Shown here: positions 7,171 through 8,013 of the stretch, piece after piece
Position numbering within the stretch: the first letter of the stretch is position 1
Layout of the letters: each line of letters begins with the position of its first letter
Source of the DNA: Escherichia coli
GTDB taxonomy: Bacteria > Pseudomonadota > Gammaproteobacteria > Enterobacterales > Enterobacteriaceae
Direction: 5' to 3' (one strand)
Assembly: GCF_001677475.2 (NCBI RefSeq)
Contig: NZ_CP015229.1
DNA length: 64,000 nt
Program-made: the position numbers and the translations under genes
Notes under the pieces: model-generated
What the model was told of the DNA's origin: nothing
What the model saw: only the letters and a program-made list of their open reading frames with translations
Database searches by the model: none

Positions 7171-7928
7171 ACCACTCCTATATAGTACCCAGGCTATGGG
7201 TCTATGGATTTTGTCATTTTGTTTAAGTCAATGAATAATATCCTCTTATCATCATGATATTTGTATGGTGCAATCATGATGAGCTGCTCTGAGAATAATT
7301 CTCTATTACCGGGCAAAATCAGGAACACAGGAATTAATATATATTTAACATCCCCCTTACAAAGGTGAGCTTAGATCGAGTTATTCCCTAAGTTGTCGTT
7401 ACTTATTCCAATTCGTTACAATGAATATGACAAAAACATTACAACAAACAGCGGTTAAATAATTTGGTGAATATTTTTGGTAATAATCCTAATTGGTTAT
7501 GGGTTTTTCGCTTGATGTATCTGCATAACAAAAACAATATGAGCCATTTTTGCATTACTAATAAGAAAAAGCAAAAAACATCGATATTCATTTTTGATCA
7601 ATGGATTTTCTGGCATATCGTTATTATCGTGATACTGGTTATCATTTTCATCTTGCCAGCATCGCACGTAATCACGTTATTCGGGGATTTTATCTGCGGG
7701 ATATTACCCTTCAGGTAAGTCCTTTTCTCGCCAGCATATTGGAGCGTGATCAATATTGATCAGCTGTGAAGGGGGCTGATGTGTAGTGGAACAAAAAATT
7801 ACGTTATATCACTGCTAATGAGATATCCGTCATCTGAACATTTATGTCTTTAATTATTCTCGTGGTTCACTGTAGGCAATAAGCACAAAAGTGTAGGATG
7901 TTATAAGAATGGTTAGGACTCGGTGAAA

Positions 7929-7958
7929 TGAAAAATCCACGCAATTGCGTGGATTTTA
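7929..7958 (-). terminator. rho-independent terminator downstream of ychF (palindrome ATCCACGCAATTGCGTGGAT with flanking A/T runs, possibly bidirectional)
   Basis: Perfect 20-nt palindrome about 60 nt past the ychF stop; T-run follows on minus strand. Confidence 0.7.
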
Positions 7959-8013
7959 TATACTTTTGCGCTCTTCATGAGATTTAGCGAAACCTCATGA
8001 GACAACAAATTAA

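Follow-up and report, generated by a model that had tools for sequence, protein, structure and literature searches.

Promoter islands were defined by Shavkunov et al. (2009, PMC2731890) as stretches of 300 bp or more in which PlatProm predicts 8 or more start points per 100-bp running window. Seventy-eight such islands are listed for E. coli K-12 (Panyukov & Ozoline 2013, PMC3661553), all of which, by the authors' account, bind RNA polymerase and give little transcript (PMC2731890). One of them, at 1255333-1255633 (U00096.2), is labelled ycgV(-)/ychF(-) and intergenic (PMC3661553, Table 1 and supplement), and it is the label 'intergenic' that fixes the coordinate version. The island carries an 'A' in the H-NS column, denoting binding according to all of the compiled ChIP studies (Grainger, Kahramanoglou, Oshima) (PMC3661553), and it is marked as foreign-gene-associated, with one of three predictors scoring it as foreign (PMC3661553, Table 1). 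The ycgV/ychF spacer described here is in this sense already known, since its K-12 orthologue is catalogued as an H-NS-bound promoter island. An earlier note on this DNA had proposed that it be compared with H-NS ChIP data for K-12, and the published occupancy, present in all three data sets, provides that comparison.

The same table includes the upstream regions of many adhesin and fimbrial genes, among them yfaL, fimB/E/A, ecpR, sfmA, elfA, yadN and yehD (PMC3661553), and it is thus fair to describe the block, as the earlier note did, as typical of H-NS-silenced adhesin promoters. The silencing regions of these cryptic adhesins (yfaL/ypaB, fimB-fimE-fimA, ecpR, sfmA, elfA, yadN, yehD) resemble the ycgV spacer in being AT-rich and gene-free, in lying in front of an accessory, patchily distributed adhesin gene and in being occupied by H-NS. 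They differ from it in that the accessible literature contains no anti-silencer and no derepression data for ycgV, including in an hns mutant. The sole specific regulator reported is a repressor: in avian pathogenic E. coli, the LysR-type protein YbdO represses ycgV about 3-4-fold as measured by qRT-PCR, and shifts a 126-bp ycgV probe in EMSA (PMC11681634).

YcgV has been grouped with the biofilm-forming, self-associating autotransporters. Another autotransporter adhesin gene of this functional group, flu (Ag43), is phase-variable through Dam methylation and OxyR acting at clustered GATC sites. The regulation of flu is mentioned in bioRxiv 10.1101/2022.12.14.520158. Unlike the flu regulatory region, the ycgV spacer is not enriched in GATC (4 sites against 2.7 expected, P=0.30); its sites are scattered, and one of the four has been lost in K-12-type strains. 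Nothing points to a Dam/OxyR switch at ycgV.

The window, by which is meant the whole 64-kb stretch of E. coli DNA that was analysed, contains the genes dhaR, ycgV, ychF, pth, ychH and dauA in that order, with names taken from RefSeq, as annotated for a 99.6%-identical strain and for K-12 MG1655. dhaR occupies 2257-4185 on the plus strand, whilst ycgV (4285-7170) and ychF (8014-9105) are both on the minus strand. The intergenic spacer between the latter two is thus exactly 7171-8013, or 843 bp, and there are no RefSeq features inside it in the annotations consulted (strain 7/2, a K-12 derivative, MG1655).

The claim that this block is strongly AT-rich is borne out. Its GC content is 35.2%, against 49.6% for the window, which makes it the lowest-GC stretch of its length in the 64 kb; 0.1% of 843-bp windows are as low, and all of these overlap it. 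The minimum within the spacer, 27.5% for a 200-bp window, lies at 7400-7599. The homopolymeric A/T tracts that had been remarked upon are also real: the spacer has 10 A or T runs of 5 bases or longer, compared with 4.0 +/- 2.0 in composition-matched shuffles (P ~0.008). The TpA step is 1.8-fold more frequent in the spacer than in the window (0.090 versus 0.049), and the helical phasing of AA/TT at 10-11-bp periodicity is not above that of shuffled spacers (P=0.72). Elsewhere in the window, 843-bp stretches below 40% GC are found only at 48321-49500 and at about 57900 (minimum 37.6%), and these also score highly in the crude promoter-like scan described below.

The features of the spacer, from the ycgV start codon outwards, are as follows.

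7171-7297, minus strand: proximal ycgV 5' region, equivalent to the YbdO EMSA probe
7175-7179, minus strand: ycgV Shine-Dalgarno sequence AGGAG, 4 nt upstream of the ATG at 7170-7168, as read from the sequence
7249-7282: perfect 10-bp inverted repeat, TCATCATGAT-N14-ATCATGATGA, some 80-110 bp before the start of ycgV
7328-7628: orthologue of the K-12 promoter island and lowest-GC core (GC 27.5-34.5%)
7464-7718, plus strand: 84-aa ORF with a TTG start, judged to be a chance ORF
7655-7729: 75-bp segment missing from K-12-type strains, flanked by imperfect direct repeats
7730-7925: distal accessory part, ending at the junction with core DNA
7932-7957: bidirectional intrinsic terminator; the perfect palindrome (13+13 nt) has an A-run to one side and a T-run to the other
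7965-8009, minus strand: first hairpin of the ychF 3' UTR

The spacer is a composite. Its last 88 bp (7926-8013) are the core-genome 3' tail of ychF, and the remainder (7171-7925) is the 5' regulatory part of the ycgV module. The earlier description of the whole block as the region upstream of ycgV consequently holds for 7171-7925 but not for 7926-8013, which is the ychF terminator region. Read on the minus strand, 8013 to 7920 folds into two strong hairpins (-33.2 kcal/mol, z = -6.0). The second of these hairpins is the palindrome at 7932-7957, which lies 57 nt past the ychF stop codon and has the make-up of an intrinsic (Rho-independent) terminator; being perfect, and flanked by an A-run and a T-run, it is a bidirectional one. 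ST131, which lacks the rest of the block, conserves this hairpin stretch.

The proximal ~270 bp are the sole part of the block that can be aligned with the orthologue from a Citrobacter metagenome-assembled genome (MAG), in which the motif GGGTACTnTAnAGGAGTGGTATGG at the ycgV Shine-Dalgarno sequence is also kept. The primers ycgV-r and ycgV-biotin-f of the YbdO study (PMC11681634) map to 7171-7190 and 7278-7297, placing the inverted repeat at 7249-7282 within the equivalent of the YbdO probe. The repeat shows no polymorphism in 11 E. coli strains, chosen to span the identity range, and is not conserved in the Citrobacter orthologue. It is a candidate regulator site or, alternatively, a candidate 5'-leader hairpin.

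The island itself was mapped to 7328-7628 by its distance from the ycgV start codon, over a stretch without indels relative to K-12, and it coincides with the lowest-GC core. The two loci are orthologous, with identical flanking genes, and the K-12 spacer is ~95% identical to that of the window strain once the 75-bp deletion is set aside; they differ in that the window strain keeps the segment that K-12 has lost, and by a handful of substitutions. Imperfect direct repeats of 12 bp, TCTTGCCAGCAT (7651-7662) and TCTCGCCAGCAT (7726-7737), border the segment, as would be expected had it been lost by slippage, and it is missing from 4 of the 11 strains and from about half of a 'spread' sample of genomes. 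Beyond it, 7730-7925 is the most polymorphic part of the spacer: ~15% of its sites vary among the 11 strains, about twice as many as in the rest, and it has small indels in addition.

Judged by the features that mark a region as silenced by H-NS, the spacer has a high AT content, an association with an accessory gene and H-NS occupancy, the last of these known from the literature for the K-12 orthologue. A high-affinity H-NS nucleation motif or intrinsic curvature is frequent, but not obligatory, in H-NS-silenced regions. The high-affinity 10-mer TCGATAAATT is not enriched in the spacer, where it has no match with at most one mismatch, and one match with at most two mismatches against 2.1 expected.

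Promoter prediction, which the earlier note had also suggested, gave a divided answer. A crude scan for -35/-10 consensus sites found 1.5 per 100 bp compared with a window mean of 0.62, a 2.5-fold enrichment. The density expected of an island was, however, not reproduced by simple consensus scans: the island core reached only the 84th percentile of 300-bp windows in the crude scan, and a stricter one found 3 sites against 5.0 expected from shuffles. The status of the locus as a promoter island thus rests on the published PlatProm result. The ycgV<ychF spacer is listed as containing a SELEX peak of the sigma-H RNA polymerase holoenzyme; it is not among the sigma-70 holoenzyme SELEX peaks of PMC3946193, a paper from which ycgV is absent. 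The best sigma-70-like match in the spacer (7211-7239, plus strand, TTGTCA-17-AATAAT, 10/12) is directed away from ycgV, and plus-strand transcripts starting from it would cross the whole spacer toward the bidirectional terminator.

Taken together, it is very probable that 7171-7925 is a non-coding regulatory region of ycgV and a platform for H-NS silencing, that the terminator insulates it from ychF, and that the 84-aa ORF encodes nothing. The nucleoid protein H-NS would load onto 7171-7925 on account of its extreme AT-richness, and may polymerise across the promoter region and keep ycgV transcriptionally quiet during ordinary growth. The same composition would supply many promoter-like hexamers on both strands, at which RNA polymerase could be bound without productive output. 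Specific regulators would be layered over this silencing, as YbdO may be in the proximal 127 bp. At the far end, the terminator at 7932-7957 ends ychF transcription and would stop any plus-strand transcripts leaving the AT-rich block, and it would insulate ychF from the block and the block from ychF. The composition, the limits of the genes, the module's accessory nature, H-NS binding at the K-12 orthologue (as published), YbdO binding in vitro and the absence of coding signatures are all demonstrated, whilst silencing of ycgV by H-NS in this strain, and the way in which it is relieved, are matters of inference.

An alternative is that the spacer harbours a gene. The plus-strand ORF at 7464-7718 is present as first described, 84 codons long and encoding a low-complexity hydrophobic product. 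Of its second codon positions 49% are T, which accounts for a product rich in Ile, Leu, Phe and Val. The question is whether it is a real and young gene, confined to E. coli, whose product is a small membrane protein with a single pass, either a proto-gene or a peptide of the type I toxin kind. In most strains such a protein would be a 59-68-aa version starting from the ATG at 7515, served by the promoter-like site at 7393-7422 on the plus strand (TTGTCG-18-TACAAT) and by the terminator at 7932-7957, both of which are suitably placed, upstream and downstream of the ORF on its own strand. The predicted product includes QW(I/V)FW.IV(I/V)IV(I/L)LVIIFILP, a hydrophobic stretch of membrane-spanning length preceded by a KKKQK cluster. 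The frame is open in all 11 sampled strains, with the 75-bp deletion falling in frame, and gene callers predict the ORF in hundreds of assemblies, a few of the records bearing the name 'membrane protein'.

Against this, the ORF shows no sign of purifying selection. Of its sites that vary among the 11 strains, 17 are nonsynonymous and 5 synonymous (dN/dS ~0.8), and in its hydrophobic core 10 are nonsynonymous and 1 synonymous (dN/dS ~2). In the same strains, all 15 variable sites of the ychF control are synonymous and none nonsynonymous, and the ratio for the 5' end of ycgV is 0.45. An open frame at ~95% identity is, moreover, to be expected from shared ancestry alone.

Nor are the ends of the ORF stable. 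A G-to-A change at 7495, creating a TAG codon at 7494-7496, removes the first 17 codons in 9 of the 11 strains; the 75-bp deletion takes the last 21 codons in the four strains that carry it; and a TAA-to-CAA change extends the frame in one. The resulting products are of 60, 68, 84 or 85 aa, so that both the N- and the C-terminus vary from strain to strain. Their length is what chance would provide: when the spacer is shuffled with dinucleotides preserved, 13% of the shuffles contain an ORF of 84 aa or longer (P=0.13) and 61% one of 59 aa or longer, with P in the range 0.4-0.6 for lengths of 59-67 aa. No Shine-Dalgarno sequence is found upstream of the candidate starts at 7464, 7512, 7515 and 7539.

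Searches for relatives were similarly unrewarding. Across 5.8 billion clusters and 1.84 billion representatives, the only homologues of the ORF are E. coli and Shigella ORFs from the same locus, several of them frameshifted in A-runs. Four ORFs of the spacer, scanned against Pfam and NCBIfam, match no family there, and the 84-aa ORF none in PADLOC or PHROGs; the marginal matches in these family searches, to TatA (E=0.87), SLATT (E=0.017) and Sie (E=0.4), involve transmembrane segments only. The ORF is annotated neither by PGAP nor in MG1655. It is also absent from the supplement texts of two ribosome-profiling surveys, the K-12 Ribo-RET study (Stringer et al. 2021) and the O157:H7 Sakai study (Huecker et al. 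2017), which amounts to weak negative evidence since the ycgV locus is probably silenced in culture.

A young gene at this position is thus very unlikely, and the suspicion voiced in the earlier note, that the ORF is probably not a gene, is supported. We judge it to have arisen incidentally where one frame is rich in T, and none of the tests applied marks it as a gene. The narrower proposal, that the ORF from the ATG at 7515 is an H-NS-silenced, species-restricted and recently arisen proto-gene for a single-pass membrane peptide of 59-84 aa with neutrally evolving ends, is very improbable; were it true, the peptide would have been born from T-rich non-coding DNA and would be expressed only when H-NS silencing is lifted.

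The small hydrophobic proteins and type I toxins of E. coli include those of the Ldr, Hok, Ibs and Sho types. The ORF resembles them in its intergenic position and in having one hydrophobic stretch of membrane-spanning length. It differs from them in lacking purifying selection, stable ends, a Shine-Dalgarno sequence, paralogues or homologues, and evidence of an antisense RNA. The ORF, which gene callers predict so often, sometimes as a 'membrane protein', is best left out of annotations. Beyond this matter of annotation hygiene the importance of the locus is small, save in illustrating that a reader with the sequence alone is able to recognise a silencing block of the H-NS type.

A second ORF, of 44 aa, lies on the minus strand at 7197-7328 and ends 24 nt before ycgV. 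It has a GTG start and no Shine-Dalgarno sequence, and on reading the alignment with the Citrobacter orthologue its frame appears to meet a stop and to be broken by indels. With 1 nonsynonymous and 3 synonymous sites it gives P=0.025, a value that fails correction for the 10 ORFs tested, and it was rejected as a candidate gene.

The spacer might instead act as RNA, in the form of a long regulatory 5' leader of ycgV or of an independent small RNA. A spacer of ~750 bp is long for a simple promoter, and the perfect inverted repeat at 7249-7282 lies some 80-110 nt before the ycgV start codon. The predicted folds, however, are not exceptional, with z-scores of -1.2 for the proximal leader, 0.04 for the putative plus-strand transcript and -1.2 for the long minus-strand leader. 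A scan of the spacer against Rfam at a permissive threshold gave only sub-threshold, Leu_leader-like matches on the ychF terminator hairpin, which we regard as terminator-like noise, and outside its proximal part the sequence of the block is not conserved in the Citrobacter orthologue. A structured RNA is accordingly a very unlikely explanation of the block.

The distribution of the block among genomes shows it to be accessory. At least 80% of it is carried by 4094 of 5426 complete E. coli genomes, whilst about 600, ST131 included, have nothing of it but the final ~87 bp. In strain 4224 of ST131, the segment equivalent to 4186-7925, comprising the dhaR-ycgV spacer, ycgV and the AT-rich block (3.7 kb), is replaced by a 27.7-kb integrase island, with homology resuming at the dhaR stop codon and at ~7926. 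The island (locus L021, 1491-29205, NZ_CP103592.1) has a tyrosine integrase gene abutting the ychF terminator, and its cargo includes IS3/IS91 remnants, a second integrase and RadC, as well as a retron Ec67-family reverse transcriptase and an ABC-three-component system. The interval separating the ychF terminator from the integrase gene contains three GAGTACA repeats. The site between dhaR and ychF hosts alternative cargo according to lineage, an adhesin module with ycgV in the window strain and an integrase-borne defence island in ST131, and the AT-rich block forms the regulatory end of the 3.7-kb accessory adhesin module. In O157:H7 (Wll001) ycgV is annotated as truncated and in O157:H16 as frameshifted; the upstream AT-rich block is kept in both.

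The position of the block at the edge of an accessory module, at a site where an integrase island is found in other lineages, and the unusual polymorphism and small indels of 7730-7925, could also be taken as signs of decay; the block would then be what is left of a former gene or mobile element, such as a regulator gene or one end of an island with which ycgV arrived. Against this, the block has no similarity to phage records, and nine 'plasmid' matches proved to be mislabelled pieces of E. coli chromosome, either multi-megabase or non-mobilisable. There are no terminal repeats, tRNA genes or tandem repeats in the spacer, and, as described above, the 84-aa ORF, the one compared with the large protein libraries, had same-locus matches only, whilst the four ORFs scanned against Pfam and NCBIfam belong to no family there. 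In other genera, too, the orthologous loci have AT-rich DNA without genes, over about 470-590 bp. Decay of a former gene or element is for these reasons a very improbable origin, and a regulatory region belonging to the ycgV module remains the preferred account.

These other loci were found by a species-level search for ycgV, which returned no other Escherichia species. Full-length relatives are present in the Citrobacter MAG (79% identity), Leminorella grimontii (60%) and Pantoea (46%), all in other genomic contexts and none beside ychF. The 600 bp upstream of these genes have a GC content of 31-42%, with 200-bp minima of 25-34%, compared with 50-55% for the coding sequence, and the only resemblance to the sequence of the E. 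coli block is that of the proximal part in Citrobacter. With an AT-rich upstream region in every relative, it is the composition, and not the sequence, that is conserved in this accessory gene family.

The search also returned two records from unrelated bacteria. In JAEWQO010000123.1, an 'Actinomycetes bacterium' MAG, the DNA is 98% identical to E. coli ycgV and includes the spacer as well, and Nocardioides malaquae NODE_453 (270 bp, coverage 0.76) is 98% identical to E. coli ycgV; both are most likely E. coli contamination.
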